A stretch of DNA of 64,000 bases from Candidatus Kerfeldbacteria bacterium (lineage in GTDB: Bacteria; Patescibacteriota; Patescibacteriia; SBBC01; CAIJZX01): positions 284,446-348,445 of the forward strand of contig JACPSJ010000001.1 in assembly GCA_016193315.1 (NCBI GenBank), in the 5' to 3' direction. Under the pieces are notes generated by a model. That model was not told the DNA's origin, ran no database searches, and worked only from the letters and a program-made list of their open reading frames with translations. Position 1 is the first letter of the stretch. Each line of letters begins with the position of its first letter. Below, one piece after another: positions 249 through 24,502 of this stretch. The position numbers were made by a program, and so were the translations under genes.

Positions 249-262
249 AGGGTCGAAGTGAA

Positions 263-781: not shown

Positions 782-803
782 GACAACTCACGGATTTCTG
801 ATA

Positions 804-835
804 CCTGGCAAGCCTCACCGCTGGCAGTTGCCAGG
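804..835. promoter_or_regulatory. 8-bp inverted repeat CCTGGCAA-N16-TTGCCAGG in the divergent intergenic region
   Basis: Perfect inverted repeat between divergently oriented genes, upstream of a TATATT -10-like box at 851-856. Confidence 0.25.
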
Positions 836-897
836 AGCGAGTAAAACTGTTATATTCACCTGGTCACCCTCGATAGAGATTGGTCGGAAACCAAAGG

Positions 898-1848
898 ATG
901 AGAATGTCCAAAAAATTGGTCCAAATTGGCGCCATGTCTGGGTTGACGACCTTGGCTGTTTTGGCGTTGGCGCTTTCATCCGGATGGGGTGGTCGACCCC
1001 CGACGGCCTCGGCGGCGCATATTCCCTACGTCGAACCAGACGGCCCACCACCACAAAGCGTTCCGCAACGAACACTTCAGGGTTATAATCAGCCACTCGA
1101 GTTTCTGAACGCCTCTTCAGCCAGCCAGCTGAAGCGCGGGTCGCTGTTAATCGGCGAGAGCAGTGGCAGCGTGTCTGACTGTACCGACCCAGCCTCGAGC
1201 GATCCAGATAAGACTCGTGGTTGCAGCCGCTGGTGTCTTAATTCCGACCAGTCCCTCTGGACGACCGATGTCAACAACTGCATTCGGACCTGGCAGCAAC
1301 TGCCCCTGGTCGGTGGTGGGCCGTTCCTGCGACTCCTGGATGAGACCGGGTTGAGTCAGGTCGATCGCGGCGTCGTCGTTCTGTTGGGGCGCAACACTGA
1401 AAACCAATTTAAGACGCTGGTGGCTGAGGCCAACCCAGCGGCCAGCGGTTCAGTCGGCATCGGGGCTCGAAGCACCTCGACCAGCCACTACGCGGCTGAG
1501 TTTGCCGGCCGGGTGCTGGTCAACAACAGCAGCGGCGACGCCAAGCTGTGTCTCAACGGCAACGACTCCACTCACTGCATCGCCACCTGGCAAGGGGCGA
1601 TCGAAAGCGGCTTTCCGCCGGAGACTGTTCGCCTTCGGAACGCCACCCCTTGGTCGGTTCAAGATAGTCCTGGTGGCTTGCCCGGCAACGTCGGCTTGAA
1701 TGGACCACTGATCGTCGGGTCGCTGGTAGTCGGCACGCCGGCCGGGCCGCTGCTGTGCGGCGCGGCGCCGTGTTCTTGTGGCGATGGTTTATGCTCGACG
1801 GTCAGCAACGAGAACTCAGCCACTTGTGCAGCTGATTGCCCGCCCTAA
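898..1848 (+). CDS. secreted Cys-motif protein, paralog A (signal peptide; ends CGAAPCSCGDGLCSTVSNENSATCAADCPP)
   Basis: ORF-track frame 880-1848. ATG at 898/904 with AAAGGA RBS. Sec-type signal peptide (ALALSSGWGG). Motifs shared with paralogs B, C and D (EPDGPPPQ, GSLLIGE, CLNS..C..TW, CLNG..HCIATW). Confidence 0.6.
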   Translation: MRMSKKLVQIGAMSGLTTLAVLALALSSGWGGRPPTASAAHIPYVEPDGPPPQSVPQRTLQGYNQPLEFLNASSASQLKRGSLLIGESSGSVSDCTDPASSDPDKTRGCSRWCLNSDQSLWTTDVNNCIRTWQQLPLVGGGPFLRLLDETGLSQVDRGVVVLLGRNTENQFKTLVAEANPAASGSVGIGARSTSTSHYAAEFAGRVLVNNSSGDAKLCLNGNDSTHCIATWQGAIESGFPPETVRLRNATPWSVQDSPGGLPGNVGLNGPLIVGSLVVGTPAGPLLCGAAPCSCGDGLCSTVSNENSATCAADCPP

Positions 1849-1850
1849 CC

Positions 1851-4322
1851 ATGTTCCTCGACTACCGAATCCGGCTGCCGTTTCTGCTAGTGATGGTCAT
1901 CACTATTGCGGCCCTGGCCAGCCCGGCCCGGTCGCAGAACTTCATCAACCCCGGCGCCGACGCGCCAAGCGGGTCAATCGCGCCGCCGCTCAACGCCGGC
2001 AACACCATCCAGCGCAAGATCGGACCGCTGTTAATCGGGCCTGATCCGCGGATTGCCTATTATGAATGCTACAGTTACGGCGGGGCAAGCGAACTTGAAA
2101 CCTGGCTGGGTACGGCCATTCAAAGCGACCCATGGCTGAGCGCCCGCACGAGCTATTATAGCGACATCGATAATACCGATCCCTATGACGACGGTTGTCT
2201 CGATTCCCTTGAACCCGGTGACCCGCAGCCGCGGCGCCTGCGGCAAATGCTGTTGGATAACGCCGCTCACCCCTTCAGCTTGATCATCCTGAATACTCCG
2301 GGTCTGGCCAATGGCGTACCCGATCCGAGCGATAACTACCTGGCGCAAATTGAGGACTACATTGCTGATGGCGGCACGGTCTTGGTGACCAGAAAGCCAG
2401 TCGGGCTCGATGGCGATCCCAAGGTCGGACCCGGCGACATATCGCGGCAATTGTTTGCCGGGGTAGTGATGTGCAAGAGTTATTGTGAAGATCCGACCTG
2501 GACCGGTTGCGGTTACACCATGCAGGGCGGTGCAGCCGGGTGTGACAGCAATCCGGTCAACCGCCCTTCGGGCCCCTTTACGGCCAGCGTTTCATCGCCG
2601 TGGGACATTTCCCCGGCTGCGGCTGGCGGCGATGATGTCTCATGGCAATACCCGCCAACCGCCAGATACATGGGCGTCATCGGGAACTCCACCGGCTACA
2701 ATGATCACGGCGTCGGATCGACGGTTCACGGCAGCATCAACCCCACGCTTGACGTCGTCTACAACCTGTCCAGCGCTCCGGCCGACGTCGGCCCAATCGG
2801 CCAGATGGCGCACTGGCAGTACTTCCAAGGCAAAGTCTACTTCGTGGCCGACGAGTCGGAGAATCTGTCGATTGTCGACAATGGTACCGAGGACGAAAAC
2901 AGCATTTGCGGATCCGACGACACGATGTGTATCAAAACGACTGGCGCTCCCGGCGGCGATTACGATCGAACCGTTCGCTTTTGGATTAACACCATCACCA
3001 CTCTGGCTGAGCAGTGCGGCGATCGTTGCCAGAGCAAGATCTGTCTTAACGCCGATGTTGGTGCCGACATCAACGATCCCGTCAACTGCATCTCTCAGTG
3101 GACCGACGTGGTCATTTCCGGCGGCCCGTATGTCAGTTTGACGGAAAGCCGAGTGACCGGCGACCCGCTGTCGATCAGCAGCTACTCGCTCCAAACCGGC
3201 TTTGCCCGGGTCAGATCGACTGGTAGCGGTCAAGCGTTCTCCACCATCGTCCACTCCTCGGCGGCCGGTCCGGAGGCCGCCGCCCTCGACAGTACCGACG
3301 GTAGTACGGCTGGCAACGAAGCCGGTCTGTTCGGTGGTCGCTTCTGGGTCCATTCAAACCTGGTCGACGATCTCGGCCAGCTGTGTCTCAATGGCACCGG
3401 GGCCGTGGACTGCATCACCAGTTGGGATCAAGTCGATACTCTCTTCACCAGTTCCTACGTCAAGCTCCAGGCCTATGCCATCGGACAGCCGGTCTTATCA
3501 ACGGCCCAGGAGGAACAGATTGGCGGCGGTTCGGTTAGCGGCGTTGGCAAGATTTCTACCATCATCGCTGGCAACCCCGCCAACGTCAGCGGGGTATCCT
3601 GTGGGGCGGCGCCTTGTACCTGCGGTGATGGACAGTGCGCCGACCCGGCCGAAACCGGCGGGGTCGGGGGCAATTGTCCGGCCGACTGCGACGCCATCAG
3701 CCCAGCCGTCTCGCTCAGTCTCGGCACCTGGCTGGAAACCGTCACCCTGCGGGTCCGCACCGCAGCCCAGGCGCCGGCTGGCTCGAAAGTCAAGCTGTTG
3801 GTCGTCCGGCGTCAAGGCGCCGCCCCGGATTTCGTGCCCCAGGCCGGCGTGGTGTACGCCACGAACATGGTCTTTGGCTCAAACAAGATCGTCTATGCCG
3901 GCGAGGTCGATCAGGATACCCTGGTCACCGTTCCGGCCGACAGCGATCCGGCGCTCGACGCCGACCAAACGTACTTCTACCAGGCCATCCAGGGAAATCT
4001 TTTCCCCCGTTACGGCACGCCGGTCACTGAATCGATCACCCTGCGGCAACTGTTTGTCTCCAAGAATATTCCTGGCGCCGGATCGATCTTCGGTTCGGCC
4101 TTCAACTGCCTGCCAGCTTGCTTTGGCGCCAGCGCTTTCTATCGCCACGGGACCGTCGAAACTATTCGGGCGACAGCGTCAGCCCCCAATGAGTTTATCG
4201 GCTGGGAGGGTAGTGACTGCTTCGGCCCTGACCCTGAATGTACCATCACCATGGATCGGACACGCAGCGCGCGAGCCATCTATTGTGAGCCGCCGCGACC
4301 CGGCCGAATATGCGCAGAGTAA
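1851..4322 (+). CDS. secreted Cys-motif protein, paralog B (823 aa)
   Basis: ATG 3 nt after the stop of A. Signal peptide MFLDYRIRLPFLLVMVITIAALASPARSQ. Contains PLLIGPDP, two CLN..C(I)..W modules and an internal SCGAAPCTCGDGQCADPAETGGVGGNCPADC motif. Confidence 0.6.
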   Translation: MFLDYRIRLPFLLVMVITIAALASPARSQNFINPGADAPSGSIAPPLNAGNTIQRKIGPLLIGPDPRIAYYECYSYGGASELETWLGTAIQSDPWLSARTSYYSDIDNTDPYDDGCLDSLEPGDPQPRRLRQMLLDNAAHPFSLIILNTPGLANGVPDPSDNYLAQIEDYIADGGTVLVTRKPVGLDGDPKVGPGDISRQLFAGVVMCKSYCEDPTWTGCGYTMQGGAAGCDSNPVNRPSGPFTASVSSPWDISPAAAGGDDVSWQYPPTARYMGVIGNSTGYNDHGVGSTVHGSINPTLDVVYNLSSAPADVGPIGQMAHWQYFQGKVYFVADESENLSIVDNGTEDENSICGSDDTMCIKTTGAPGGDYDRTVRFWINTITTLAEQCGDRCQSKICLNADVGADINDPVNCISQWTDVVISGGPYVSLTESRVTGDPLSISSYSLQTGFARVRSTGSGQAFSTIVHSSAAGPEAAALDSTDGSTAGNEAGLFGGRFWVHSNLVDDLGQLCLNGTGAVDCITSWDQVDTLFTSSYVKLQAYAIGQPVLSTAQEEQIGGGSVSGVGKISTIIAGNPANVSGVSCGAAPCTCGDGQCADPAETGGVGGNCPADCDAISPAVSLSLGTWLETVTLRVRTAAQAPAGSKVKLLVVRRQGAAPDFVPQAGVVYATNMVFGSNKIVYAGEVDQDTLVTVPADSDPALDADQTYFYQAIQGNLFPRYGTPVTESITLRQLFVSKNIPGAGSIFGSAFNCLPACFGASAFYRHGTVETIRATASAPNEFIGWEGSDCFGPDPECTITMDRTRSARAIYCEPPRPGRICAE

Positions 4323-4325
4323 TAG

Positions 4326-5210
4326 ATGTCTAACCGCCACGATTCTTACGCCGTCGCTTCATTGCTCTTCGCCCTGGTTGGCGCGATTCTAGTCGTACCC
4401 GTGGCGGCCCAGTACCTCGAACCAGATGCCCCCCCGCCCGAGGGCCGGAGCGGGGTTTATCTCGACATATCCAGCCAGCCGCAGCAGAAACTCGGCTCGC
4501 TGCTCATCGGCGATGGCGATGTTGGCGATCAGCTGTGCTTGAATTCACCGAGCACTGGCGACGCCGGCCCATACTGCCTGGGGTCGTGGTCCGACGTCTA
4601 CGAGCGCGTCAACGGACCGTTCGTCAAAGTTCGCCAGGATCAGATCGGCGCCGCCCCCGAGGTCGTCAGTAGCTACGATAGTTTGCGCCAGAACGGGTAC
4701 ATGCGCTTGCGGGGTGCTGGCAGTACGCCCGCCACGACCTACCAGTCCGACGCCGACGCCGGAGCTGGCACTAAGGTCGGTATCTATGCCGGTGACCGCG
4801 GTGATATCAGCGGCTATGCCGCGCAGTTTACCGGGCAGCTGCGTATCAACGAACACAACAACGTCGGCGCCGACCCCGGCGAACTCTGCCTCGGCCCGTT
4901 TGACGACGGTGGAACCGCCCCCTATGACCAGGCCGGTCCGGCGCCGCGCTATGGCTGCCTGCAACAATGGAGCCAGCTGACCGCTGGCCTGATCGGGCCG
5001 TACCTCAAGGTGCAGAGCAGCAACCCGCCGAGCGACGTGCAGCTTGGCAGCGTCCGCATGGCCGGCAAAGCCTTCCAACTCGACGTTGGAACGGTCGTCG
5101 GAGGGGTAACTCCGGGCATGATTTGTGCCGGCGGGAATTGCTTTTGCGGCGACGGGTTGTGCAGCGCCGAAGCCGGCGAAACTGCGGCTACTTGCAGCAA
5201 TGATTGTTGA
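4326..5210 (+). CDS. secreted Cys-motif protein, paralog C
   Basis: Signal peptide, YLEPDAPPPEG, QQKLGSLLIGDGD, QLCLNS...YCLGSW, ELCLGP...GCLQQW. C-terminus is ICAGGNCFCGDGLCSAEAGETAATCSNDC. Confidence 0.6.
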   Translation: MSNRHDSYAVASLLFALVGAILVVPVAAQYLEPDAPPPEGRSGVYLDISSQPQQKLGSLLIGDGDVGDQLCLNSPSTGDAGPYCLGSWSDVYERVNGPFVKVRQDQIGAAPEVVSSYDSLRQNGYMRLRGAGSTPATTYQSDADAGAGTKVGIYAGDRGDISGYAAQFTGQLRINEHNNVGADPGELCLGPFDDGGTAPYDQAGPAPRYGCLQQWSQLTAGLIGPYLKVQSSNPPSDVQLGSVRMAGKAFQLDVGTVVGGVTPGMICAGGNCFCGDGLCSAEAGETAATCSNDC

Positions 5211-5252
5211 GGTAGCATTTTCTCGCCAGTTCGTTATACTAACAAGAGGTCT

Positions 5253-6746
5253 ATGGAGAGGATGAAACGAAAGCAAAAGACCAGCCTACGTCTGGCCAGT
5301 CGAAGACCGCCGGTTTTCTTGACGGCCATTATCGGCCTGCTGTTCGGGATTTCTATCACCCTGGCTAGCCGCTCAGCCTTGGCCGGGCCAATTACCGGCG
5401 GACCAGGCAGTGCGCCGTTCACCAAACTGGGCGTCTACCAGGGAGTCATCTCGATTATTCCTGGCGGGGGCGGGAACAGCGTCATGGAAATCGGCAATGC
5501 TGGTCGAGACATCAAGTCAACCGGAGCTCTGCATCTGGTTCCTGGGGGTGGCGGCGACGTTCATCTCGACGCTGGCCGGCTTTGTTTTGGCGCGGGCGTC
5601 GGCGATTGCCGCAATACCTGGGTCGGGTTGGGAGCGCAATCGCTCGATCAAGTGTTGGCGGCCGGGAACAGATCAAACAGCGATATCGTTTTGGGTCAAG
5701 GGCCTGGTCTCGGCGCTGGTGTGGCGTTGATCGACATCACTCAAACAAATGCCAGCCTAGATGCGATCTCGGCCAAACAGAATACGGCTGGCAACTCAAA
5801 AGCCGCCGTCTACGGGGAAAACACCAGCGCTAGCGGTTTTGCTGGCTACTTCTCTCATGGCCCCACCGGTAGCAGTACAACCGCGACACTCTTCTCGGAT
5901 AATCTCTACGAGTCCGGCGGCTCGACCATCGTCAATGCCAACGCAGCCAAATTTGTCGCTGACGTGGAAATCCTCCAAAAGGGGTTGCCGGCACAATCGT
6001 GGACCAATGCCTCCGTATTGAAGGTGGCGGCGAATGCCGCTCACGCCATTGGCGGCGTGCGCACGTGGCCGCTCCATGTCCGGAATCTGAATCCTAACGG
6101 CTACGCCGCGTACTTAGAAGGGTCGACGTATATTTTTGGTCAAGCCGGCGTGTTTTCGGGCGGAGCTGAAGGCACAGTGAATGCGACGCTGTTGGTGGAC
6201 AACACCGCTGGCGCTTCGCCGATGTGGGGGAATGCCATCAAAGGCCACGCGGGTAACGCCTATGTCGGCGCCCCGCCCATCGCCGACGCGCCAAGCGCGT
6301 TCATTGGGGTGTGGGGGAATGCTGGGTTCACGGCCGCTGGGACGAATGGCATTGGAGTCTACGGCTCGACCAATGCCACCAGTTCAGGCACTGAATACGG
6401 TGGCTATTTTGAAGCCCGGAACACCTCGGCCGCCGGCCAGGTGCGGTACGGGCTGTACGGAAAATCCGGGACCGGACCGGGCACACAGTACGCCGCGTAC
6501 TTTGAAGGTCAAGTGGTAAAAAAGGGCTCGGGCTCTGCCGGCCCGGCCATGACAAGCTTGGCGATCAGTAGCCCGCTGCCCGGCGCTTGCGGCGTGGTGG
6601 GACCAAAGAATTGTCTAACGATTTGCACAGAGTCTGGACTGACGTGTGTCGGAGCGATGAATCTTGGAGGTGCGCCGCCGGGCTCCTATAACCTGGGCGG
6701 TACATGTAACGAGAATCGCGGGTGCTATCGATGCGTTTGTTTGTAA
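5253..6746 (+). CDS. secreted Gly-rich repeat protein (Hep_Hag-like repeats), paralog D
   Basis: TATACT at 5235-5240 and AGAGG RBS before ATG 5253. N-terminal TM/signal. GRLCFGAGVGDCRNTW module related to A-C. Repeats of the xGxYGxSxxxxGxxxxAAYFEG type. Cys-rich C-terminus. Confidence 0.55.
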   Translation: MERMKRKQKTSLRLASRRPPVFLTAIIGLLFGISITLASRSALAGPITGGPGSAPFTKLGVYQGVISIIPGGGGNSVMEIGNAGRDIKSTGALHLVPGGGGDVHLDAGRLCFGAGVGDCRNTWVGLGAQSLDQVLAAGNRSNSDIVLGQGPGLGAGVALIDITQTNASLDAISAKQNTAGNSKAAVYGENTSASGFAGYFSHGPTGSSTTATLFSDNLYESGGSTIVNANAAKFVADVEILQKGLPAQSWTNASVLKVAANAAHAIGGVRTWPLHVRNLNPNGYAAYLEGSTYIFGQAGVFSGGAEGTVNATLLVDNTAGASPMWGNAIKGHAGNAYVGAPPIADAPSAFIGVWGNAGFTAAGTNGIGVYGSTNATSSGTEYGGYFEARNTSAAGQVRYGLYGKSGTGPGTQYAAYFEGQVVKKGSGSAGPAMTSLAISSPLPGACGVVGPKNCLTICTESGLTCVGAMNLGGAPPGSYNLGGTCNENRGCYRCVCL

Positions 6747-6791
6747 GGATCGTCCCGAAGCGGCCCACCGCGCTCGGTTAGATGTTCGTCA

Positions 6792-9700
6792 ATGAACAAG
6801 CATCTCATCCTGCCACCACGGATAAGAGTTGCTCGTGCCACATACGGTTTCAGGTTATTGATCCTGGCGGTTGGTTTGGGTTTCTTACTCATCATCGGCG
6901 GTTGGAATTTGTTTCGTGCGACCCGAGCCGAATTCGAGGTGCCGCTGATCGACACCACCTTCCTGGCTCGGGCCGACCTGCGCGACGTGTGGAGTTACTT
7001 CCGCAACACCCGGACCCTGGGTAGTCTTAGCCCGGATTACACTGGCAGCCTCGGGACCAACGAATTTGTCCACGCCTTGGCCGTCGGCGAGACCACTGAC
7101 GGTCGAGCCTCGGTCATCCAGCTGCGCAACGGCAAGTGGGAGCAGGTCATGCCGGTCGCTGTCAATAACGGTACGGAGTACCGGATCGATGGCGCGTTCA
7201 ACGCCATTGCCGGCGCCTACGAAGACGGCGGTGGTTATGCGGACTTCTTCGTTGGCGGCTATGATAGCACCACCGGCCGGGCGATTATCCGATCCGCTTC
7301 CACTCTGGATTCTCGAATTTTTGCTGGTTGCAGTGCCAGCGCCGGTAGGCTTCAACCGTGCGACCTGGCCATGGCGTTTCAGAACAATAACAACCAGCTT
7401 TACAGCCTGCCCGGCGGGAGTACCGAAATCTACGCCATGGATGCCGTGCCCCGCTTTCTCGGCCGGAAGTATGCCGGTGGCGTCAATGGGCTATTCCTTG
7501 AGTGGGTACAGGCTCCCAATGCTACGAATACCTGCAGTGCTGGTCGGTGTACGGAAAACAACCTCCTGTGTGGCGGGGATAGTGATTGTCGATCAAACCG
7601 TTGGGACACCGTTACGGCTGGCCCGCCGTTTCTGGGCAGCAGCGAGGATATCACTGGCGTCGCCCTCGTGCAGGGTGATCTGACCTACATCACCACCAGC
7701 ACCTTTGCCGGCACTAAACCCTACGATCGGGTCTGCGGTGCCGGCCAGCGGAGCAAACTCTACCGCCTCGTCGGGCGACCCACCACCGGCGACTGGACCA
7801 CGCTGATTGACACCGGTGGCACCGGCGTTTGTTTCTACGGGCTCGCCGCTGACACCAAGTATACGTTCCCGGGCGACCATGGCCCGCTCCAGGGTGTGGT
7901 CTGGATCGCGGCTGGGCGGAGTGATGGGTCGGGTGCCGTGTACCGCTTCGATGAGGGCACCGGCGTGACGAGCATCAGCTCGACCGCACAGGGAGTAACC
8001 ACTCCGGTTTACAGCGTCACCGCCCTGCCTGACCGCGGCGGCGACGGGCAAAATATACTCACCAACGGCGATTTCGAGGCTTGGAGTGTCCGCAGCCCGA
8101 TCGTCACCGATCCAAACGTGCGGCCCGATCAATGGCCCCACACGGACGAGTCCAAGTGGGGTCGCAACAACCCCGGCGCGTCCTGCGGTCAGAACTCGAT
8201 GGATGTCCGGATCGTCGACAGCACGCAAGTCGCCGGCGTGAACGGCTACGGCATTAGGCAGGCACCGGGCATCTATTTTGACGACCAGCTCAAGTGTTTG
8301 ACAAACCTGTCGGTTGACCGAAAAAGGAACGCCTCAGCTTCGAGCTACAACCGAGTCGATCTGTCAACCATCGAGGGCACGACGTTCAAGGTCTCCGGCC
8401 GCTATAAAGTCACCTTTGATCCGGCCGCCGATTCCCCACAATACCCGCAGGGCGGGGTGATGATTCAATGCCAGGGGGCCAATTACCCCAGCAGCGTGGA
8501 CTGTTCCTTTAGCAACTTCCGCGAAGTGCGGACGCTCAGCCAGGGAAACTCGAGCCTCGATTCCCGGTCCGATGCCAACGGCTTCATCAACTTTTCCTAT
8601 ACATTCTCTCGCCAGAACAACCAATTCCTGACGCCGATCCTGGGCGGCACTTCGGGTCCGCGGGTTCTGGAACGAGGAGAAGTGTTGGAGATACGCTGCT
8701 ACGCCACCTATGGCGTAGACGTAGTCTGCGATGATCTGGCCGTGGAACCAGTCAACAGCCCAAATAAGACACCCCGCTTCAATTACACCGTCATCGCCGT
8801 CGGCGAGAATGATCCCGGCAACCCGAATGCATTCGTCAACCGGGATGGTCTTGGCAGCACCACCTTCGTTCCGGAAGACGATACCGAGTGGCCCGACCTC
8901 AATGCGGTTCACGGCTTCGGCCAACAACAGGTTTTTACCGTCGGGGCCGACAGCACCATTCTCCAACGGACGCCCGGCAACGTGCTGGGTTATGTGTGGC
9001 TGGGTTCGGCCAGTCCGGTCGACCTCGGTCGGGCCGGGCTGGGTTGGATTTCCACCACCTGCATCAACCACCGCACCCCCGGTGGGACACTATGCCTCCG
9101 GTCGCCGGAATCATTTGCCCTGACGGTCGAAAACAACCAGCTCATCGGTCGGGCCTGGGTGGGGAAGAATTACGGTACCGCCCCCGGTGGGGCGGACAAA
9201 GAATCAGCCAATCTCGGCCGGTGCCGGCGAGCGTCCTTGCCGAGCCCAACCGCCTCCGGGGCGCCGTATGACAAAAGCGGCGCCTGTAATACGGCCAGTC
9301 GAACCTGCGTGGCTAATGCCAATCAGGCCTGCCTCCGCGACTTCGATTGCTATGGTCGTTGTGAGAAGAATGAAGGATTTATCTGCGTCTCTGACGCCGA
9401 CTGCCGAGCCAGCCCTTTTGCCGCCGCCGCGCCTTTCGATAGCACCGGCAGCCGTTTGGCTCGCGAGCCGCGGGTGGGTTTAGAGTGTGCTCAGTCGAAC
9501 GCCAGCCCCTCGGCCTGCGCGGGCGGTGGTTGGCTGACATTTAGCGCCTCCGAGTTCACCGACACGCCGCCGAATGCGATAAACCCCAACAATGACTGCG
9601 GAGTCAGCGGCGGCGCCTGCCTGGACGCCGCCTCCGGGCAACTGAAAGGCTGGGGTCAATTCATGACCCTGGCGCAATCACCAGCCCCCAACGGCGACCC

Positions 9701-11153
9701 GGAACGTGGCTGGGTCAGCCTCCGCGGGCTTAACTCCACCGACCCGCCGCTCGGCATCATCATCCCCGGCGGCGGGACATGGCTGTACGGCTGCCAAGTC
9801 TGCAGCGGCGCGGCCGTCGATTCACTGACCTGCCAGTTTTGCCAAGATGGAAAGAACCGTAGTTGTGCCCCGCCGCCGACCAGCTGCACTAATTTTTGCG
9901 ACGGCGACATTACCAAAGCGCACTGCTCGCAAAACGTCCATTGCCCAGGCGGCGAAGTGTGTAAACCGGCCGGATTCTGTGCTTGGAGCGGTGAGAGGTG
10001 CACATCCGATGCTGAATGTGTAGCCAGTAGTGGCGGCCGCTGCATTTTCGGCGCCCTCTGTCCGACCACCGGTTCCAGTTGCCAGGAGTATGGCGTCAAC
10101 TTGAGCTCAGAGAACGGTCGATTCTACGGCTATGCCTGGAGTCCGGATTACGGTTGGCTCGATTTCGGACTCCTCAGTCGGGGCAGCCGCCGCTACATCC
10201 AAGCCACGCTCGGCGACATCTACTCTCAGGGCGGCATTGGATCGGAAAGTACCCTCCCGGCGCCGAGCGGCAAGAGCAACGCCACCTTTGCCATCTCCGC
10301 CGCCGGCACGATTAATAACTTTTCCACCACGTTTGCGCCGGCGGCGGTTGACTTCGACGTTTCCCGTTCACTGGCGCCGTTCATCCCCTCGCTGACCGAG
10401 CGCAACAAGTACGCTTCGGCGCTCGGCCGACTCGATCTCGATGGCATTGCCAATGAAGCGACGGGGGGCAGCGGGATCAACAAGTATGGCTCGCGCATCG
10501 TCGCTTTGACGACCGCCGGCCCGAACGATGATATCGCCAGTGACTGGAACAGCCAGCTGGACCTGGGCGGTGGCAACACTGGCCGGTTGGACGGACGCGT
10601 GTTCAGGGCCGGCACCAGCGGCCAGACGCTGACGATTGAAAACGGTGTGCGGATTAGGAATGCCACTAACGCCGCCCCCTACCGTCACGGGTCCGGCATG
10701 CTGATCGTCGAGGGCGACCTGTACGTCAAGGAAGACGTCACCTATGGCGCCAGCACGGTCCAGGATTTGCGGACGCTGGCCTCGCTGATGGTCTGGGTCA
10801 AAGGGGACTTGATGATCGATAACCACGTGACCCAGCTGGCGGGAAATTACCTGGTCGAAGGCACCATCTGTACTGGCCAGAAAGAACCCTACGGGGCCGC
10901 GGACCCGCCGGCGTGCGATCCGGTCCGCGTCGGGCCGTTCGGCGGGCCGACGTCCGACAATGTCTTCCCCCTGACCGTCCGCGGCGTCATGCTGGCCAAG
11001 AAGTTCTTCTTCGCCCGCACCTTCGCCGGGACGATCGACAATCCCTCGCCCTCGGAGTTGGTCATCAACGATGGCCGACTGCAAACAAACCCCTTGCCCG
11101 GCCTGACGGACTTCGCCAATGTGCTGCCCAGCACGGTCAACACCGGTCCGTAG
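6792..11153 (+). CDS. giant (1453 aa) membrane-anchored Cys-rich surface protein
   Basis: Single long ORF. N-terminal TM anchor (FRLLILAVGLGFLLIIGGW). Several Cys-dense stretches (CSAGRCTENNLLCGGDSDC; CQFCQDGKNRSCAPPPTSCTNFCDGD...). The ORF is uninterrupted over 4.3 kb. Confidence 0.6.
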   Translation: MNKHLILPPRIRVARATYGFRLLILAVGLGFLLIIGGWNLFRATRAEFEVPLIDTTFLARADLRDVWSYFRNTRTLGSLSPDYTGSLGTNEFVHALAVGETTDGRASVIQLRNGKWEQVMPVAVNNGTEYRIDGAFNAIAGAYEDGGGYADFFVGGYDSTTGRAIIRSASTLDSRIFAGCSASAGRLQPCDLAMAFQNNNNQLYSLPGGSTEIYAMDAVPRFLGRKYAGGVNGLFLEWVQAPNATNTCSAGRCTENNLLCGGDSDCRSNRWDTVTAGPPFLGSSEDITGVALVQGDLTYITTSTFAGTKPYDRVCGAGQRSKLYRLVGRPTTGDWTTLIDTGGTGVCFYGLAADTKYTFPGDHGPLQGVVWIAAGRSDGSGAVYRFDEGTGVTSISSTAQGVTTPVYSVTALPDRGGDGQNILTNGDFEAWSVRSPIVTDPNVRPDQWPHTDESKWGRNNPGASCGQNSMDVRIVDSTQVAGVNGYGIRQAPGIYFDDQLKCLTNLSVDRKRNASASSYNRVDLSTIEGTTFKVSGRYKVTFDPAADSPQYPQGGVMIQCQGANYPSSVDCSFSNFREVRTLSQGNSSLDSRSDANGFINFSYTFSRQNNQFLTPILGGTSGPRVLERGEVLEIRCYATYGVDVVCDDLAVEPVNSPNKTPRFNYTVIAVGENDPGNPNAFVNRDGLGSTTFVPEDDTEWPDLNAVHGFGQQQVFTVGADSTILQRTPGNVLGYVWLGSASPVDLGRAGLGWISTTCINHRTPGGTLCLRSPESFALTVENNQLIGRAWVGKNYGTAPGGADKESANLGRCRRASLPSPTASGAPYDKSGACNTASRTCVANANQACLRDFDCYGRCEKNEGFICVSDADCRASPFAAAAPFDSTGSRLAREPRVGLECAQSNASPSACAGGGWLTFSASEFTDTPPNAINPNNDCGVSGGACLDAASGQLKGWGQFMTLAQSPAPNGDPERGWVSLRGLNSTDPPLGIIIPGGGTWLYGCQVCSGAAVDSLTCQFCQDGKNRSCAPPPTSCTNFCDGDITKAHCSQNVHCPGGEVCKPAGFCAWSGERCTSDAECVASSGGRCIFGALCPTTGSSCQEYGVNLSSENGRFYGYAWSPDYGWLDFGLLSRGSRRYIQATLGDIYSQGGIGSESTLPAPSGKSNATFAISAAGTINNFSTTFAPAAVDFDVSRSLAPFIPSLTERNKYASALGRLDLDGIANEATGGSGINKYGSRIVALTTAGPNDDIASDWNSQLDLGGGNTGRLDGRVFRAGTSGQTLTIENGVRIRNATNAAPYRHGSGMLIVEGDLYVKEDVTYGASTVQDLRTLASLMVWVKGDLMIDNHVTQLAGNYLVEGTICTGQKEPYGAADPPACDPVRVGPFGGPTSDNVFPLTVRGVMLAKKFFFARTFAGTIDNPSPSELVINDGRLQTNPLPGLTDFANVLPSTVNTGP

Positions 11154-11234
11154 TCTGGCGATGACAGCCAGCATCGCGATCCAATGCTATTAGGGCTTGG
11201 TGAGCAATGAACTTCTCCACAGCCCTTTTCGCTT

Positions 11235-11263
11235 TTGACGCCAAGTCGATTTTATGCTATACT
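11235..11263 (+). promoter_or_regulatory. sigma70-type promoter of the T4P operon (TTGACG-N17-TATACT)
   Basis: Near-consensus -35 (11235-11240) and -10 (11258-11263) with a 17-nt spacer in an AT-rich gap upstream of pilM. Confidence 0.45.
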
Positions 11264-11365
11264 GAAAATACATTTAGTCGTTGTTTTTGTTGAAAAAACC
11301 CGGAACGTTGGATCCTGGTAGAACGGTCAGGGTCTGAAACCCTATCGGCTCGAGGCCGGACCGGG

Positions 11366-12382
11366 ATGTTATGGCCACCTTTAATCCCAAACATAGTTTT
11401 CTACAATGGTCGGCCTCGGCTGATGACGTACGGGTACCTAGAGCAGGCCACGGACATCGTCAAGAGCGACGCGGTCAGCAGTAAGGCGGCGGTAGTGACC
11501 GGTCTCAAGACCCTCATCCACCAGGCCCACGTTACGACCAGCAAAATGGTGGCTGCCCTGCCGAGCTTCACGGTCTTTAGCTCGATTATTAGTCTGCCGC
11601 TGATGACGCGGAAGGAGTTGAATGCCGCCGTTCGTTGGGAAGCGAAGAAGTTCGTGCCCTTGCCGATCGATGAACTGGTTCTCGACTGGAAACTAGTCAA
11701 GGACACCACCCCAAAATCGAGTGATGAACAGACGCCCAAGAACCTCCGCGTCCTGATTACGGCCGCGCCCAAGAGTTTGGTCAAACGGTATTTGGATATC
11801 GCTAAGGACAGCGGGCTGCAAATGGTCAATCTCGAAACCGAAGCCTTGGCCCTCGAACGCTCGTTGATCGGCACCGATGTCGCGCCGGTGATGATCGTCG
11901 ACATCGGCGCCGTGGCCACCGACATCGCCGTCCTGGTCGACGGCATCCCGCTCATCAACCGCAGCATCGACGTCGGCGGCAACACCATCACCAAGTCGAT
12001 CGCCCAAAGCATGAACATTGACCTGGAACGGGCCGAACAGTTCAAACGCGATTTCGGCTTGGCCACCGGCCAGCAGTCGGTGTCGCAAGTGCCGAAGACG
12101 ATCGAGTTCGTGGTCAGCTCGATCATCAACGAAATCCGCTTCGTCCTCAACCTCTACCGCACCCAGGGTCAGCCGCCGGTGGAAAAGATCGTCTTGGCCG
12201 GCGGGTCGGCCTTCCTCCTCAACTTGCCGGAGTACCTGGAGAAAACTCTGTCGATAAAAACGTTCGTCGGCGATCCCTGGGCCCGCGCCGTTTACCCACT
12301 TGAACTCCAGCCAGCGCTCCAGGAAATCGGGCCGCGCTTCGCGGTGGCCATCGGGCTAGCCATGCGTGAGATCGTGTCCTAG
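11366..12382 (+). CDS. pilM: type IV pilus assembly protein PilM (actin-like ATPase fold); N-terminally short
   Basis: AVRWEAKKFVPLPIDELVLDWKL, LITAAPKSLVKRYLDIAKDSGLQMVNLETEALALERS and DIGAVATDIAV motifs align with PilM. There is no upstream in-frame extension (TGA at 11291), so the canonical first ~25 aa (GIDIGSxxIK hairpin) are absent. Confidence 0.8.
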   Translation: MLWPPLIPNIVFYNGRPRLMTYGYLEQATDIVKSDAVSSKAAVVTGLKTLIHQAHVTTSKMVAALPSFTVFSSIISLPLMTRKELNAAVRWEAKKFVPLPIDELVLDWKLVKDTTPKSSDEQTPKNLRVLITAAPKSLVKRYLDIAKDSGLQMVNLETEALALERSLIGTDVAPVMIVDIGAVATDIAVLVDGIPLINRSIDVGGNTITKSIAQSMNIDLERAEQFKRDFGLATGQQSVSQVPKTIEFVVSSIINEIRFVLNLYRTQGQPPVEKIVLAGGSAFLLNLPEYLEKTLSIKTFVGDPWARAVYPLELQPALQEIGPRFAVAIGLAMREIVS

Positions 12383-12461
12383 AAACTTTTTACACTCTCG
12401 ATTCGAATCAAACACCGTGGTCAATCTTAAATCCCATATCCTAAATCCTTAGCCCCGTGTT

Positions 12462-12558
12462 CCCGTTAGAGATAATCACCTCCATAGTTCGGAGCATACA
12501 CTTGTGATAGTAACCGCCCCATCCTCCACCAAGGCTTACGCCCTTAATCTCTAACGGG
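12462..12558 (+). promoter_or_regulatory. long-range stem (CCCGTTAGAGAT / ATCTCTAACGGG) enclosing an AT-rich CCTCC-containing loop, abutting the pilN start
   Basis: 12-bp perfect complementary arms at 12462-12473 and 12547-12558. The 3' arm ends 1 nt before the pilN ATG (12560). The loop carries CACCTCC and CCTCCACC (anti-SD-like). Confidence 0.3.
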
Positions 12559-12559
12559 C

Positions 12560-13480
12560 ATGCCCGACGTCAACTTACTACGTGACACCGAGTCCCCGGA
12601 ACTGCCGCCCAAGAAACCTCGGCGGCCCGGGCCACCGGAGTTGACCGATCCGGTCGCTCAAGGCGGAGGTTTGAGTAAGTTTTTTCAGTCGTTCCTCAGC
12701 CGGACTGGACGGCCAGGTCGAACGCCAACCCCGGCGGTCGGCGCTCGACGGGACAACAGCATCATGGGCCTCGGCCGATCGAAAGTCGACCAGCGGATCA
12801 TTAAAGAAGAAACGCGGGCTGGCCGACCGACCGTTATCCCGCTGCCAGAAGAGGAGGGCTTGGGCGTCAACCTGCTGGCCGAAGAGCTGTTTACGACGGT
12901 CAAGCCAAGGGAACGGCTGATCCAGTTGGGGGTTTGGACAGCCGGGGCCGTCGTCCTAGTCGGGCTGGCCTACGTCGGTCTAGCCTTAGCCGAGCGATCG
13001 GTGTCCCAAAGTATCAACTCCACCCGTCAAGAACTCCGCCAAGTTGAGTCCGACGTGGCGGCGCTCCAGGATGACCAGCGACAGATCATGGCGACCACCA
13101 AGAAAGTTGCGGCCATCCGATCGCTGATCGAAAATCACACTCGCTGGACGAACTTCTTCGCCAAACTCGAAGCCTACACGCTGCCGGAAGTCTTCTACGG
13201 CACGAACTTTAGCGGCGACATCAACGGGCAGCTAACGCTCAGCGCCCGAACCGACAGTTATGAGAACCTGGCCAAACAGTATCTCGTATTCACCGCGGCG
13301 GTGAAACAAAAAGATTTCATCAGCGCCTTCGAAATCAGCAGCGCCAGCCAGCAGGTTACCCCCGAGGGTACCGCGGTCACTTTCAGCGTCTCGCTGACAG
13401 TCGTCCCGTCGGTGTTTGCCAACACCAGTGTCGCGTCGACGACTACCGACACGGCCGACGATTCCGTCCGTAACCCATGA
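12560..13480 (+). CDS. pilN: PilN-like type IV pilus assembly protein with extended cytoplasmic N-terminus
   Basis: Starts MPDVNLLRD (PilN INLLP-type N-terminus). Single TM (VWTAGAVVLVGLAYVGLAL) followed by a coiled-coil periplasmic region. Position between pilM and pilO. Confidence 0.65.
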   Translation: MPDVNLLRDTESPELPPKKPRRPGPPELTDPVAQGGGLSKFFQSFLSRTGRPGRTPTPAVGARRDNSIMGLGRSKVDQRIIKEETRAGRPTVIPLPEEEGLGVNLLAEELFTTVKPRERLIQLGVWTAGAVVLVGLAYVGLALAERSVSQSINSTRQELRQVESDVAALQDDQRQIMATTKKVAAIRSLIENHTRWTNFFAKLEAYTLPEVFYGTNFSGDINGQLTLSARTDSYENLAKQYLVFTAAVKQKDFISAFEISSASQQVTPEGTAVTFSVSLTVVPSVFANTSVASTTTDTADDSVRNP

Positions 13481-14130
13481 AAGTTCCCGCCAGCTTAACC
13501 AGTTTTCTAGTCGACCACTTCCGCTGGGCGGCCGGGACGGTGATGGCCATCATCTTTATCCTCGGCTACTTACTGTTGCTGCAAGGGCGGATCGACACCC
13601 TGCGGACGGCAGGTTTCTTGGAACGTCGGAAGGTCGAGGCCGAACTCAACGCCCAGCGGCAATTCGCGCGGGACTTGCGGACCTCCGTCGACCGATTCCG
13701 TCAGGCGCTGACTCCCGACCGCCTGGAGGTAGTCGACCACTTTATCCCCACCGGCCCCGACTTTCCGGGCTTACTCCTCACCCTCGACAATATCGCCCGC
13801 TCAGCCAATCTGCGCCTCGACTCGATGATCGTTAGCCAAGCCGGCCAAACGGGCAACCTCGGGGACGAGGCGACGGCCAGCGGGGAGGGCGCCGTCAGCG
13901 CCGCCACGATTAGCGGGGTCAACCTCCGGACCCAGGATGTGTCCGTTCTGGTTTCCGGCGGCGCGAGCTATGATCACTTTAAGCGCTTTATTTCGTTGGT
14001 CGAGTCCAGTCAGCGGTTGCTTGACGTTATCACTCTCAACTTCGTGACGCCCCAAAAAGATGAATCAGAGGCCTCCGAATCTTACGGTATCGTCGTCCGG
14101 ACATACTATTTACCAGATGAACAAGCCTGA
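13477..14130 (+). CDS. pilO: PilO-like type IV pilus assembly protein
   Basis: Single TM (AAGTVMAIIFILGYLLLL), then coiled coil and a C-terminal domain. Translationally coupled with pilN (ATGA overlap). Confidence 0.6.
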   Translation: MKVPASLTSFLVDHFRWAAGTVMAIIFILGYLLLLQGRIDTLRTAGFLERRKVEAELNAQRQFARDLRTSVDRFRQALTPDRLEVVDHFIPTGPDFPGLLLTLDNIARSANLRLDSMIVSQAGQTGNLGDEATASGEGAVSAATISGVNLRTQDVSVLVSGGASYDHFKRFISLVESSQRLLDVITLNFVTPQKDESEASESYGIVVRTYYLPDEQA

Positions 14131-14133
14131 GCC

Positions 14134-14409
14134 ATGGCGCTGGTAAAGAAACGATCAAATTCCGCCCGCTTGTTCCTGGTGCTGGTCGTGGTGGTGGCCA
14201 TTGCCGGCGTCGGTTATTTCTTAGTGCAACAATTCATCGCCCCCTCGCCAGGCGGCCCGGATGACCAAGCCAATCGGAATCGGGCAGTCATTACAAATTT
14301 TGGCGAAGGCATTCTCAACGACGATCGCTACCGCGCCCTACGGTCCTTTGAACGAACCATCTCGGTCAACGTCAACGCCGACGCCGGTAATCCTGATCCG
14401 TTCCAGTAG
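14134..14409 (+). CDS. small membrane protein (possible PilP-like component)
   Basis: 91 aa with an N-terminal TM (LFLVLVVVVAIAGVGYFLV). Ends ...AGNPDPFQ. Sits between pilO and pilB. Confidence 0.4.
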   Translation: MALVKKRSNSARLFLVLVVVVAIAGVGYFLVQQFIAPSPGGPDDQANRNRAVITNFGEGILNDDRYRALRSFERTISVNVNADAGNPDPFQ

Positions 14410-14411
14410 CC

Positions 14412-16166
14412 ATGGCCCCGCCACCAGTTGCCACCACCGCCTCGCTGGCTGATATTCTTCTCCGCGAGAACGTTCTTAGCCCTACCAAGATCGGCGAACT
14501 ACAAGCCGAAGCCCAGCGCGCCCACGAGACGCTCGACCATATCATCGAACAATCGGGGGCGGTGCGGGAGGAAGATTTACTGCGGGCCAAGTCGGCCCTG
14601 TACAACCTGCCGGCAATTGACTTGTTCGGCAAGATCGTCCGGGCGGAAATCCTGAACATCATTCCGCCGGAGCTGGCGGAAAACTATCGGATGGTCGCCT
14701 TCAATCGAGCCGGCGACGAGGTGGCGATCGCCATGGTCGACCCGACGAATTTCCAGGCCCTCGAGGCGGTGGAATACTTGGCTCGCAAACATAATTTGCG
14801 CATCAAGTACTACTTGACGGCCGAGGCCTCACTGAAATACGTTCTCCGTCAGTACGAGAGTCTGTCGGCCGAAGTAGAGGAAGCGCTGAAAGGGGCCGAG
14901 GCCGGGGCGGCCAAGCAACTCGGGGCCGTCGAAATTTCGGAAAAAGGGCTGGAAGAGGTAGTCAAAACAGCGCCGGTCTCGAAAATCGTCTCGGTCGTGC
15001 TCCGTCACGCGGTCGAGGGCAAAGCTTCCGACGTCCACATCGAACCGGTGGGCAACGAAACCCGAATTCGTTACCGCATCGACGGTATCCTCCACACCTC
15101 GTTGACCTTGCCGAAGCACGTCCACTCCGCCCTGGTCGCCCGGATTAAAGTTCTATCGAATCTGAAGATCGATGAAACCCGCGTCCCCCAAGATGGCCGT
15201 TTTCGGATGGTCATCGACGGCCGCAACATCGACTATCGGGTCTCGACGCTGCCGCTGATCAGCAACGAAAAGGTGGTGATGCGGATCCTGGACACGAGTT
15301 CCGAGCTGATTACGCTCGAGCACCTTGGTTTCGAGGGCAAGAACATGGAGGTTATGCAGGAAGCGGTCACCCGCTCGCACGGCATGTTTCTCATCACCGG
15401 GCCGACTGGGTCGGGCAAGTCAACCACCCTCTATGCGTTGCTGAACATTCTCAACGAAGAAGGAGTCAATATCATCACCCTCGAAGATCCGGTCGAATAT
15501 TACATGACCGGGGTCAATCAATCGCAGGTCAACCCAGACGTCGGTTTGACCTTTGCCGCCGGCTTGCGCTCAATTCTCCGCCAAGACCCGGACATCATCA
15601 TGGTCGGCGAGGTCCGGGACAACGAGACCGCCGCGCTGGGCGTCCACGCCGCCCTGACCGGTCACATCGTCCTGTCGACCCTCCACACGAACGACGCCAT
15701 CGGTGCCATCCCCCGTCTGATCGACATGAAGATTGAGCCGTTCCTGATCGCTTCGTCCCTGAATGTGGTCATGGCCCAGCGGCTGGTTCGTCGCGTCTGC
15801 CAACACTGCAAACGCGAGTTGCCGATGCCGAAGGAAATGGAATCGTTAGTGGTCGAGGGCCTGCACGGATTGGCGCGCGATCGCCTACCGAAGGATGTCA
15901 AGTTGACGCCGCCACTTCGCATTTGGCAGGGCCAGGGCTGCGCGCGATGCGAGAACTCGGGCTACAAAGGCCGAGTGGCCATTTCCGAGGTGCTGGAGAT
16001 TACGGAGGGGATGAAGAAGATAATCGTCGCCGGTGGCGACCTGATGGAGAACATCCACACCGAGTTCGTCACGCAGGGCATGTTTTCTATGAAGCAGGAC
16101 GGGATTATTAAGGCCCTTCGTGGGCTAACAACGGTCGAAGAGGTGCTCGACGCCACCCGGGCATGA
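14412..16166 (+). CDS. pilB: type IV pilus assembly ATPase PilB (GspE family)
   Basis: N-terminal GSPII_E_N-like domain. Canonical Walker A ITGPTGSGKSTT, Asp box ITLEDPVEY, Walker B DPDIIMVGEVRD, His box LSTLHTNDA, and the CxxC...CxxC tetracysteine. Confidence 0.9.
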   Translation: MAPPPVATTASLADILLRENVLSPTKIGELQAEAQRAHETLDHIIEQSGAVREEDLLRAKSALYNLPAIDLFGKIVRAEILNIIPPELAENYRMVAFNRAGDEVAIAMVDPTNFQALEAVEYLARKHNLRIKYYLTAEASLKYVLRQYESLSAEVEEALKGAEAGAAKQLGAVEISEKGLEEVVKTAPVSKIVSVVLRHAVEGKASDVHIEPVGNETRIRYRIDGILHTSLTLPKHVHSALVARIKVLSNLKIDETRVPQDGRFRMVIDGRNIDYRVSTLPLISNEKVVMRILDTSSELITLEHLGFEGKNMEVMQEAVTRSHGMFLITGPTGSGKSTTLYALLNILNEEGVNIITLEDPVEYYMTGVNQSQVNPDVGLTFAAGLRSILRQDPDIIMVGEVRDNETAALGVHAALTGHIVLSTLHTNDAIGAIPRLIDMKIEPFLIASSLNVVMAQRLVRRVCQHCKRELPMPKEMESLVVEGLHGLARDRLPKDVKLTPPLRIWQGQGCARCENSGYKGRVAISEVLEITEGMKKIIVAGGDLMENIHTEFVTQGMFSMKQDGIIKALRGLTTVEEVLDATRA

Positions 16167-16582
16167 CGCGTTCTATGACCACCGCCAACCACAGCCAGAC
16201 CAAGATTCTGATCGTCGAGGACGATACGTTCCTGGCCGGCATGTACGTCACCAAGCTGGGGATGGAACATTTTGCCACCGACTTGGCGAGCGACGGTAAA
16301 AGCGGACTGGAAAAAGCTAAGAAGTTTGCGCCCGACCTCATTCTGCTGGACGTGCTACTGCCAAAACTGAACGGCTTCGACGTCCTCCGATCATTGAAGC
16401 GTGAGCCGAGCACGCGCCATATCCCCGTCATCCTGCTAACCAACCTCGGTCAAAAATCCGATGTCTTGAAAGGGCTCGAACTCGGCGCCAGCGACTATCT
16501 GATCAAAGCGCACTTTATGCCGTCGGAGGTGGTCGATAAGATCAAGCAAACGCTCCGGCGTGCGCATCCCCGCTCGCGATGA
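16163..16582 (+). CDS. stand-alone response-regulator receiver (CheY-like REC) protein
   Basis: ILIVEDD...DLILLDVLLP...LTNLG...IKA carries all REC signature residues (DD, phospho-Asp, T, K). No output domain. Confidence 0.8.
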   Translation: MTRSMTTANHSQTKILIVEDDTFLAGMYVTKLGMEHFATDLASDGKSGLEKAKKFAPDLILLDVLLPKLNGFDVLRSLKREPSTRHIPVILLTNLGQKSDVLKGLELGASDYLIKAHFMPSEVVDKIKQTLRRAHPRSR

Positions 16583-16664
16583 TGATGGTCACTGCTGGCG
16601 ACCGATATCCCACCGCCTGGCCCACCGAATCAACGTTAACTGACATTCGGAGTTTCTAGCCGGA

Positions 16665-18947: not shown

Positions 18948-18955
18948 CGCGCGCT

Positions 18956-18984
18956 CGACAGTCGGTCCGATCTGTGCTATACTC
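18956..18984 (+). promoter_or_regulatory. promoter of the major pilin gene (TCGACA-N17-TATACT)
   Basis: Extended -10 TGCTATACT at 18976-18984. About 105-nt leader ending in a strong GGGAGGTGA RBS before ATG 19095. Confidence 0.4.
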
Positions 18985-19094
18985 AATGTGGATAACATGA
19001 AAAACTCAGCGAACGGCGTTAACCAAGACAGATAGGGACCAACCGGATCCGTGGTCCCTGCGTTTGGCATCGTCAGTTCCAATCCCGAAGGGAG

Positions 19095-19682: not shown

Positions 19683-19768
19683 CGTTTGGCAACGTCTGGC
19701 AACGCCCCCGAGTCTGCGGGGCGTTGCTGGCATTGTCGGTGCCGCCGACTTTCAGTAGGATATCAATC

Positions 19769-20386: not shown

Positions 20387-20418
20387 CCGCGGGTCGATCA
20401 ATCTGCTATACTTCTCTC

Positions 20419-24498: not shown

Positions 24499-24502
<4 letters not shown>
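23567..24502 (+). CDS. PilX-like / pilus-associated protein with N-terminal TM helix
   Basis: MAAREHRWVFRSRRRPGVVLLLAMLLMASVTAST has a hydrophobic N-terminal helix without the conserved Glu. Last gene of the pilin block. Confidence 0.45.

Follow-up and report, generated by a model that had tools for sequence, protein, structure and literature searches.

How the ultra-small bacteria of the Candidate Phyla Radiation (CPR; Patescibacteria) locate their hosts and stay attached to them is a central question that is still open. To our knowledge, type IV pili (T4P) are the one CPR appendage shown to matter, and the work so far has all been on Saccharibacteria pilins. Among CPR, Kerfeldbacteria are notable for how strongly they attach to hosts (PMC7906910), and a locus of a Candidatus Kerfeldbacteria bacterium (contig JACPSJ010000001.1; the whole 64,000-nt stretch analysed here is called the window) offers a concrete, conserved set of candidates in this group: three uncatalogued families of proteins plus a conserved domain, encoded by five genes directly upstream of a T4P operon. 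What are these proteins, and do they work with the pilus? The gene cluster, A to E, was found to be conserved, lineage-restricted and positioned 5' of the T4P operon, and to evolve much faster than PilM and PilB. We tentatively favour, at somewhat less than an even chance, the reading that the exported proteins A–E are a non-enzymatic surface set acting with the adjacent T4P in host attachment, with E as a PilY1-like partner. A, B and C belong to one family (F1) and D to a second (F2); the window genes carry locus tags HYY50_015xx.

Gene A: 904..1848, + strand, short F1 protein (314 aa from ATG 904, 316 aa from ATG 898)
Gene B: 1851..4322, + strand, long F1 protein, 823 aa
Gene C: 4326..5210, + strand, short F1 protein, 294 aa
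Gene D: 5253..6746, + strand, F2 protein, 497 aa
Gene E: 6792..11153, + strand, 1453-aa multidomain 'giant'

An earlier note on this DNA had described four tightly packed Sec-secreted proteins that could be assigned to no known family, followed by an anchored giant, next to the T4P genes. This description was partly confirmed: the five open reading frames (ORFs) are co-directional on the + strand within 898–11153, with spacers of 2–45 nt, and a counterpart of the cluster was found in relatives. Eleven informative loci, meaning F1-bearing contigs with enough flank to judge, were compared (L001/L004, L005/L006/L012, L008, L009, L010, L011, L018, L019, L020, L021 and the window). All eleven carried the cluster directly 5' of the T4P operon. 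In each, the minus strand encoded a small protein, LemA, an M48 peptidase and ClpB, and the plus strand F1/F2, the giant and the T4P genes, in the order of 2–6 F1/F2 genes, an E homolog of 1436–1678 aa and pilM-N-O-x-pilB. F2 was missing from some loci, while F1 and the giant were present in all. Identities to the window proteins were distributed as follows.

PilM: 70–79%
PilB: 67–76%
PilN/O-like proteins: 32–49%
E: 30–36%
F1/F2: 27–39%

Two much more distant loci, L016 and L017, were recovered in a metagenome scan (PilM 46–47% and PilB 49–51% identical). Both encoded, immediately upstream of pilM, a 970-aa protein sharing with E only its C-terminal domain (30–32% identity). The gene was preceded by one for a different secreted, fibre-like protein, whose mature N-termini (A↓LWVQP and A↓AWVEP; arrows mark predicted cleavage sites) resemble that of F1. 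As a separate observation, the contig with the closest giant homolog (L004, CAYGGC010000005.1) is titled 'uncultured Gammaproteobacteria bacterium'. It carries a CPR-type T4P locus with a PilM 77% identical to that of the window, and this gene content suggests that the metagenome-assembled genome is mislabelled.

Each of the five proteins has a single N-terminal hydrophobic segment with small residues at −3/−1, in the n-h-c layout of Sec signals with AxA-type sites, followed by Pro/Gly-rich sequence. Cysteine counts in A, B, C, D and E were 12, 26, 10, 10 and 46, all even (2–3.8% of residues), compared with 0–4 (0–0.7%) in the cytoplasmic neighbours. Judging from these features of the sequences, A–E are very likely extracytoplasmic and disulfide-bonded, and that they are real, conserved genes is practically certain. 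Scans of A–E against Pfam, NCBIfam and PHROGs gave nothing above threshold, nor was there a match among PDB sequences, and the isolated C-terminal peptides of 31–35 aa matched nothing in library scans. A–E had no N_methyl (PF07963) match at E ≤ 1, whereas downstream pilins did, and no C-terminal hydrophobic segment or known sorting signal (LPXTG, PEP-CTERM, GlyGly-CTERM and similar) was found in them. The proposal of a lineage-specific module outside the known families was upheld. An exhaustive HMMER search of 1.84 billion proteins with a profile of the A/B/C core yielded 131 cluster representatives (113 at E ≤ 1e-10) with invariant Cys, Trp and Gly columns. The F1, F2 and E families, the mature N-terminal peptide and the pilM-adjacent C-terminal domain are uncatalogued; the general kinds to which they belong, Cys-rich secreted CPR surface proteins and non-pilin adhesins of pilus loci, are already known.

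Of the four consecutive proteins that the earlier note had taken for paralogs, A, B and C were related by BLASTP (A to C, 3e-18; A to residues 395–613 of B, 4e-14). The F1 proteins open with a Sec signal and a conserved start of the mature chain, continue with an LCLN..C..W hairpin module that is present in duplicate, and carry a C-terminal knot, CGDGxC..E..C..DC. In A (F1 hidden Markov model (HMM), 6e-78), the signal peptide is followed by YVEPDGPPP, QLKRGSLLIG, two LCLN..C..W modules and a terminal CGDGLC..E..C..DC. The repeated disulfide-loop module (LCLN..C..W..GP(F/Y)V) was confirmed, two copies per F1 protein, as an internal duplication of homologous units (hhalign 98.5%, E 1.7e-15). Family members come in two sizes, either about 280–320 aa and ending in the knot, or 400–760 aa with extensions beyond it.

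The mature N-terminal peptide is the most striking conserved feature of F1. Directly after the predicted AxA site it reads Q-(T/S)-(Y/F)-(V/I)-(E/N/D)-P-(T/S)-x-x-P-P-G-G, followed by LN.S...Q.K.GSL.IG. The EPD(G/A)PPP motif reported for all four proteins was present in A and in C (predicted cleavage VAA↓QYLEPDAPPP), degenerate in B (NPGADAP) and lacking in D. An aromatic-x-(E/Q)-P peptide also stands right after the predicted signal-peptidase site in the giant (A↓EFEVP) and in the fibre proteins of the distant loci (A↓AWVEP), as it does in F1 (A↓QTYVEP); the observation covers window 4410–4440, 1027–1050 and 6927–6945, L016:6570-8054 and L017:6940-8085. This peptide, for which no counterpart is known, might serve in N-terminal recognition or assembly. 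We also considered a pilin-like role for the Glu at position +5 of the mature F1 protein and rejected it, since this residue is not followed by a hydrophobic helix and its position varies in E and in the distant fibre proteins.

The CGDG signature lies at the extreme end of A and C and internally in B, as had been noted. It contains six cysteines in these proteins instead of the eight claimed, and only four of them are conserved family-wide. A shared C-terminal sorting or processing tag, which the note had considered, does not fit the family. In about half of its members CGDG lies inside the chain, with an FN3-like, InlB-B-repeat, Hint or Gly-rich extension behind it, and in unrelated proteins the unit is repeated in tandem. 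It therefore constitutes a small domain of the disulfide-knot kind and not a sorting tag. Many long members (P0011, P0014, P0030, P0065, P0066, P0070; L018:2651-4228) have a Gly-/acid-rich linker and then a short PP.I(I/V)P or IIPPR-like tail. This tail is lacking in the window proteins and could represent a C-terminal signal or strand specific to the lineage.

Protein B, matched by the F1 HMM in two stretches, is built from the N-terminal motif (residues 17–71), an insertion (72–394), the F1 core (395–615) and a C-terminal extension (616–823) with an FN3-like and an InlB-B-repeat-like region. Matches of B to the InlB B-repeat family Flg_new_2 (PF18998) reached 13–15.7 bits, under the cut-off of 23.6 bits, and long F1 orthologs exceeded it (28.8 bits for an L001 protein; precomputed matches in L019 and L020). 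For the unique insertion of about 325 aa (window 2064–3032), between the N-terminal motif and the first hairpin module, neither the orthologous loci nor Pfam or PDB offered a homolog; in sequence (…HPFSLIILNTPG…YIADGGTVLVT…) it resembles an alpha/beta protein. Some orthologs of B (L005:10001-12292, P0027; L008:10001-11974, P0069; also P0044, P0047, P0105 and P0109) end in a Pretoxin-HINT/Hint domain (…HNYY…LVHNK). Such a terminal Hint could self-cleave in a Hedgehog-like manner, releasing or ligating the F1-FN3-B-repeat part as an alternative means of anchoring.

A relation of F1 to antibody heavy-chain variable (VH) domains, raised by the comparison of the profile with PDB sequences (best E 2e-4), was rejected, given the many near-identical antibodies in PDB and the lack of fold support. 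Profile positions of about 150–240 (e.g., residues ~160–220 of C), with YAxxFxGxVxI…LCLN…C..W…V.LQ, do resemble the VH framework YAQKFQGRVTI…YYC…WGQGT.VTV. The resemblance is probably due to chance or convergence, and could hint at an Ig-like strand order. A word-indexed homolog search with C returned only C itself.

Protein D, the fourth of the supposed paralogs, is a fibre-like member of the second family, F2, distantly related to F1 on profile evidence. BLAST between C and D was not significant, and the link was made at the profile level (F1 HMM to D, 5e-6; hhalign 79–90%). The F2 HMM matched D at 7.6e-50, and one protein of an orthologous locus matched both HMMs. Besides its signal peptide, D contains AGPITGGPGSAPFTKLGVYQGV, a single GRLC..C..TW hairpin and Gly-rich repeats (YAAYFEG), and its C-terminus is rich in Cys; F2 as a whole is defined by AGP(I/V)T.G.G.AP(F/Y)..L.VYQGV.S plus one G.LC..C..W(P) hairpin. 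D and F1 have in common only the G.LC..C..W hairpin and a YAAxFxG segment. The Hep_Hag-like repeats that had been assigned to D found no HMM support, as no Pfam family, including the Hep_Hag/YadA head repeats, matched D at E ≤ 1, and the resemblance is confined to Gly-rich YG/YAAYFEG strings.

The giant, E, begins with a hydrophobic segment with ATRA↓EFEVPL and an N-terminal part of about 375–380 aa. A CBM-like jelly roll comes next, then a middle region with GW repeats and many cysteines, and last a C-terminal domain that is strongly conserved and beta-rich. E was earlier described as anchored by a transmembrane segment. This is doubtful, because in all E orthologs the hydrophobic segment is followed by small residues at −3/−1 and then by an invariant AEFEVP. 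The segment is probably a cleavable signal peptide rather than a membrane anchor, and E would then be secreted. Full-length orthologs were 29–36% identical. A word-indexed search with E gave one homolog, and a scan of genome contigs with the giant hit only the L001 genome. Two domains of E were delimited.

Putative CBM4/16/22-like beta-jelly-roll: 8058..8756, + strand, E residues ~423–655, starting NGDFEAW and ending VVCDDLAVEPV
Most conserved E domain: 10086..11150, + strand, E residues 1099–1453, with ...PLTVRG..AKKF.F.R..AG....PSE..I.DGRLQ.NP.PG.TDF

The jelly roll was proposed from an AlphaFold2 model of residues 421–1453 with an overall predicted local distance difference test (pLDDT) score of 37.5, in which residues ~515–653 are the sole semi-confident part (block pLDDT 45–76). 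In a Foldseek search against PDB, this part of the low-pLDDT model matched CBM16, CBM22 and CBM4 (E 1e-4, prob 1.0, TMt 0.45–0.56). No CBM family was matched by sequence in Pfam or NCBIfam (E; six orthologs against Pfam). A Ycf48/BNR-like beta-propeller for the N-terminal 380 aa was rejected, as self-comparison revealed no internal repeats and there was no HMM support. In residues ~740–1125 (window ~9010–10165), motifs of the form G(W/Y)AWS…GW(I/L).F (e.g., FYGYAWSPDYGWLDFG; ISGWAWSDKAGWISLNC) recur, alternating with stretches rich in Cys (C..D.DC). The repeat, recognised by no library, also occurs in other giants and in the distant 970-aa proteins (L016:8078-11002). The Myxococcus Cys-rich repeat TIGR04201 scored 14.6 bits in E on a single 16-residue stretch, against a cut-off of 25.

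The C-terminal domain, common to the giants and to the 970-aa proteins upstream of pilM in the distant lineage, had no TIGR04215 (choice-of-anchor A) match in E of the window. In three orthologs it aligned to positions 12–87 of the 255 of this model, at 19.4–28.2 bits against a cut-off of 29. There are hints, at the level of such alignments, of a beta-solenoid. A Kelch-like identity was rejected: the hits were to designed Kelch-like repeats in PDB (E 1.5e-5 summed, about 10 bits per stretch) and are attributable to repeat bias.

The transcription signals and the T4P genes around the cluster were as follows.

Sigma-70-like promoter of gene A: 828..856, + strand, TTGCCA-17-TATATT with extended TG, 10/12 matches
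Terminator-like hairpin: 11192..11237, + strand, GGGCUUGGUGAG..CUCCACAGCCC, then UUUUCGCUUUU (U-tract), overlapping the −35 of the pilM promoter
Sigma-70-like promoter of the T4P operon: 11235..11263, + strand, TTGACG-17-TATACT, beginning 82 nt past the E stop
T4P operon: 11366..24502, + strand, pilM, three PilN/O-like genes, pilB, pilT, pilC, pilins, pilD

The promoter of gene A was one of only two such sites in a scan of the + strand of 1–12600. That the giant gene ends just before the T4P promoter agrees with what had been reported; pilM, pilB, pilT, pilC, pilins and pilD follow. The hairpin (region free energy −30.2 kcal/mol, z −2.4) is absent from a simple hairpin scan because its loop is long. 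Together, the promoter at 828–856, the short spacers and the hairpin indicate that A–E have their own transcription unit, and the region 828–11237 looks like a self-contained operon, separate from that of pilM. Gene A probably starts at ATG 904, since a ribosome-binding site (AAAGGA) lies at 892–897 and the database copy has 314 aa.

Around this region, a 172-aa minus-strand ORF at 263–781 corresponds, with weak conservation (24–30% identity), to the small protein found ahead of LemA-M48-ClpB in related loci; that block presumably continues just past the left end of the window. Downstream, 19095–24502 holds about seven small pilin-like genes (195–327 aa), only three with an N_methyl match. pilD (20652–21593) sits amid them, and several ORFs listed there overlap and need curation of their start codons. 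ARAGORN and Rfam gave a single RNA gene for the window, a tRNA-Pro(GGG) at 31997–32073.

Under the reading that we favour, A–E would be exported, with signal peptides cut at AxA↓Q (F1) or TxA↓EFEVP (E), and would fold oxidatively outside the cell, where they would act with the adjacent pilus to recognise and hold a host cell. E would be a non-pilin, PilY1-like partner of the pilus, its conserved C-terminal domain giving constant docking or anchoring and its variable N-terminal and CBM-like parts binding host-surface glycans, while the duplicated, fast-evolving F1 and F2 proteins would supply variable binding or fibre elements. The evolutionary pattern is that of surface-exposed proteins, as identities of 27–39% for F1, F2 and E stand against 67–79% for PilM and PilB, paralogs number 2–6 and F2 is optional. 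The CBM-like fold in E and the InlB B-repeat and FN3-like region of long F1 proteins were counted as binding-type domains in favour of host attachment. The link to the pilus is supported by the order F1(/F2), giant, pilM-N-O-pilB in all eleven loci and by the 970-aa proteins upstream of pilM in the distant lineage. The pilins of the window are all small (195–327 aa), and this was counted as context for the reading; candidate pilus adhesins of Saccharibacteria are minor pilins with jelly-roll or beta-propeller domains (PMC11623550). The absence of PilQ from CPR (bioRxiv 10.1101/335083) and the unusually firm attachment of Kerfeldbacteria to hosts (PMC7906910) were taken as further context in its favour. 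A surface or host-interaction role as such is probable, with a somewhat better than even chance, and that the proteins are physically part of the pilus or docked to it is possible, if rather doubtful.

Several points weigh against this reading. Both the adhesin function of A–E and their physical association with the pilus are inferred. Having their own promoter and terminator, A–E are not co-transcribed with pilM. Library scans of E found no pilin signature, and Pfam scans of E and six orthologs found no PilC/PilY1 beta-propeller at E ≤ 1. The CBM assignment depends on the low-pLDDT model described above. The predicted structure of F1 is also a low-confidence model and matches nothing, so that no binding site can be named. 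The ClpB-M48-LemA block is as syntenic as the pilus genes, also in the distant L016/L017 lineage. Part of the synteny is therefore frozen gene order, and adjacency alone is weak evidence of a functional link; the conserved adjacency may reflect only frozen gene order in streamlined CPR genomes.

The last of these points leads to the main rival, in which A–E are pilus-independent fibre proteins of the surface, envelope or S-layer, or adhesins, occupying a permissive slot between ClpB-M48-LemA and the T4P genes in a frozen gene order. The separate promoter and terminator and the equal synteny of the housekeeping block, including that in L016/L017, accord with it, as does the variable content of the slot (2–6 genes, F2 optional, a different fibre family in the distant lineage), and CPR genomes are rich in large, Cys-rich extracellular proteins with a supposed role in attachment (PMC4736985). 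Nevertheless, the C-terminal domain of E is always immediately 5' of and co-oriented with pilM, even at 46% PilM identity, no copy of F1, F2 or E occurs elsewhere in the 64-kb window, and all 11 of the F1 contigs examined are at the T4P locus. We regard this explanation as unlikely, though it is a serious contender.

Alternatively, E, with or without F1/F2, might be a structural collar, conduit or anchor guiding the filament through peptidoglycan and S-layer in a monoderm and replacing PilQ/TsaP-type parts. PilQ is absent from CPR (bioRxiv 10.1101/335083), the proteins are rigid and disulfide-rich, and the strongly conserved C-terminal domain of E invariably adjoins the pilM/N/O alignment-complex genes. 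However, a part of the machine would be expected to evolve more slowly, and the identities of E (30–36%) and F1 (about 30%) are as low as or below those of the PilN/O-like ectodomain proteins (32–49%). The varying paralog number and presence of F2, the CBM-like and InlB-repeat-like binding domains and the separate transcription unit also speak against it, and we consider it improbable. Contact-dependent delivery of toxins or effectors by a polymorphic-toxin kind of cluster comes to mind given the Pretoxin-HINT ends of some B orthologs (PF07591, 1.3e-12 in P0027; P0069). It is essentially excluded, as library scans found no Hint or toxin domain in the window proteins, only 2–10 residues follow HINT in the orthologs, leaving no toxin cargo, and there are no immunity-like genes. 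Spurious ORFs or fast-evolving junk, which the lack of matches in curated libraries might have suggested, are refuted by the 131 family representatives with their invariant columns, the full-length, syntenic orthologs and the even Cys counts.

A more speculative reading, which we think distinctly unlikely, is that F1, F2 and the giant are unrecognised extracellular parts of the secretin-less CPR T4P, either a non-pilin tip/adhesin complex or a collar crossing the wall and S-layer. They would be recruited via the mature N-terminal peptide (A↓Q-T-(Y/F)-(V/I)-E-P; A↓E-F-E-V-P; A↓.W-V-(E/Q)-P) and the ...DGRLQ.NP.PG.TDF domain of the giant; by the same unlikely proposal, these two recruitment signatures would be ones that no known sorting or assembly system uses. 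If the pilus link is true, the locus would reveal by what route a monoderm pilus takes on adhesins that are not pilins. If it is false, the cluster only adds to the lineage-specific sets of Cys-rich surface proteins that abound in CPR genomes. Annotation models could be built for the F1 domain, for F2 and for a "pilM-upstream giant C-terminal domain".

Among known systems, the InlB B-repeat/Flg_new_2 family (PF18998) matches the C-terminal part of long F1 proteins and represents an accessory domain, not the F1 core. The beta-solenoid surface proteins of the choice-of-anchor A type (TIGR04215) share with three E orthologs a stretch of about 70 residues of the C-terminal domain, aligned to the first third of the model; all scores are under the cut-off, and E lacks a C-terminal sorting signal of any kind. 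By description, A–E are similar to the large Cys-rich extracellular proteins of Peregrinibacteria and other CPR, which have a signal peptide, high Cys content, no annotation, weak similarity to the Myxococcus Cys repeat and a suggested role in attachment (PMC4736985), although those were described as gene clusters not tied to a T4P locus. The modular minor pilins PilX1 and PilX2 of Saccharibacteria, from the same superphylum, are candidate host-binding elements of T4P with jelly-roll or beta-propeller accessory domains and proposed glycan binding (PMC11623550). They are true pilins with prepilin-peptidase signals, whereas A–E have Sec-type N-termini and no N_methyl motif. For E, the closest counterpart that we can propose is functional, namely the tip adhesins PilY1/PilC of Proteobacteria and Myxococcus. 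E differs from these in having no PilC/PilY1 beta-propeller match at E ≤ 1 and no detectable propeller repeats, in its gene position upstream of pilM instead of among the minor pilins, and in being extremely Cys-rich. Like them, it is large (~1000–1500 aa), exported by Sec and not a pilin, is encoded at a T4P locus and combines a variable, putatively ligand-binding portion with a conserved one.

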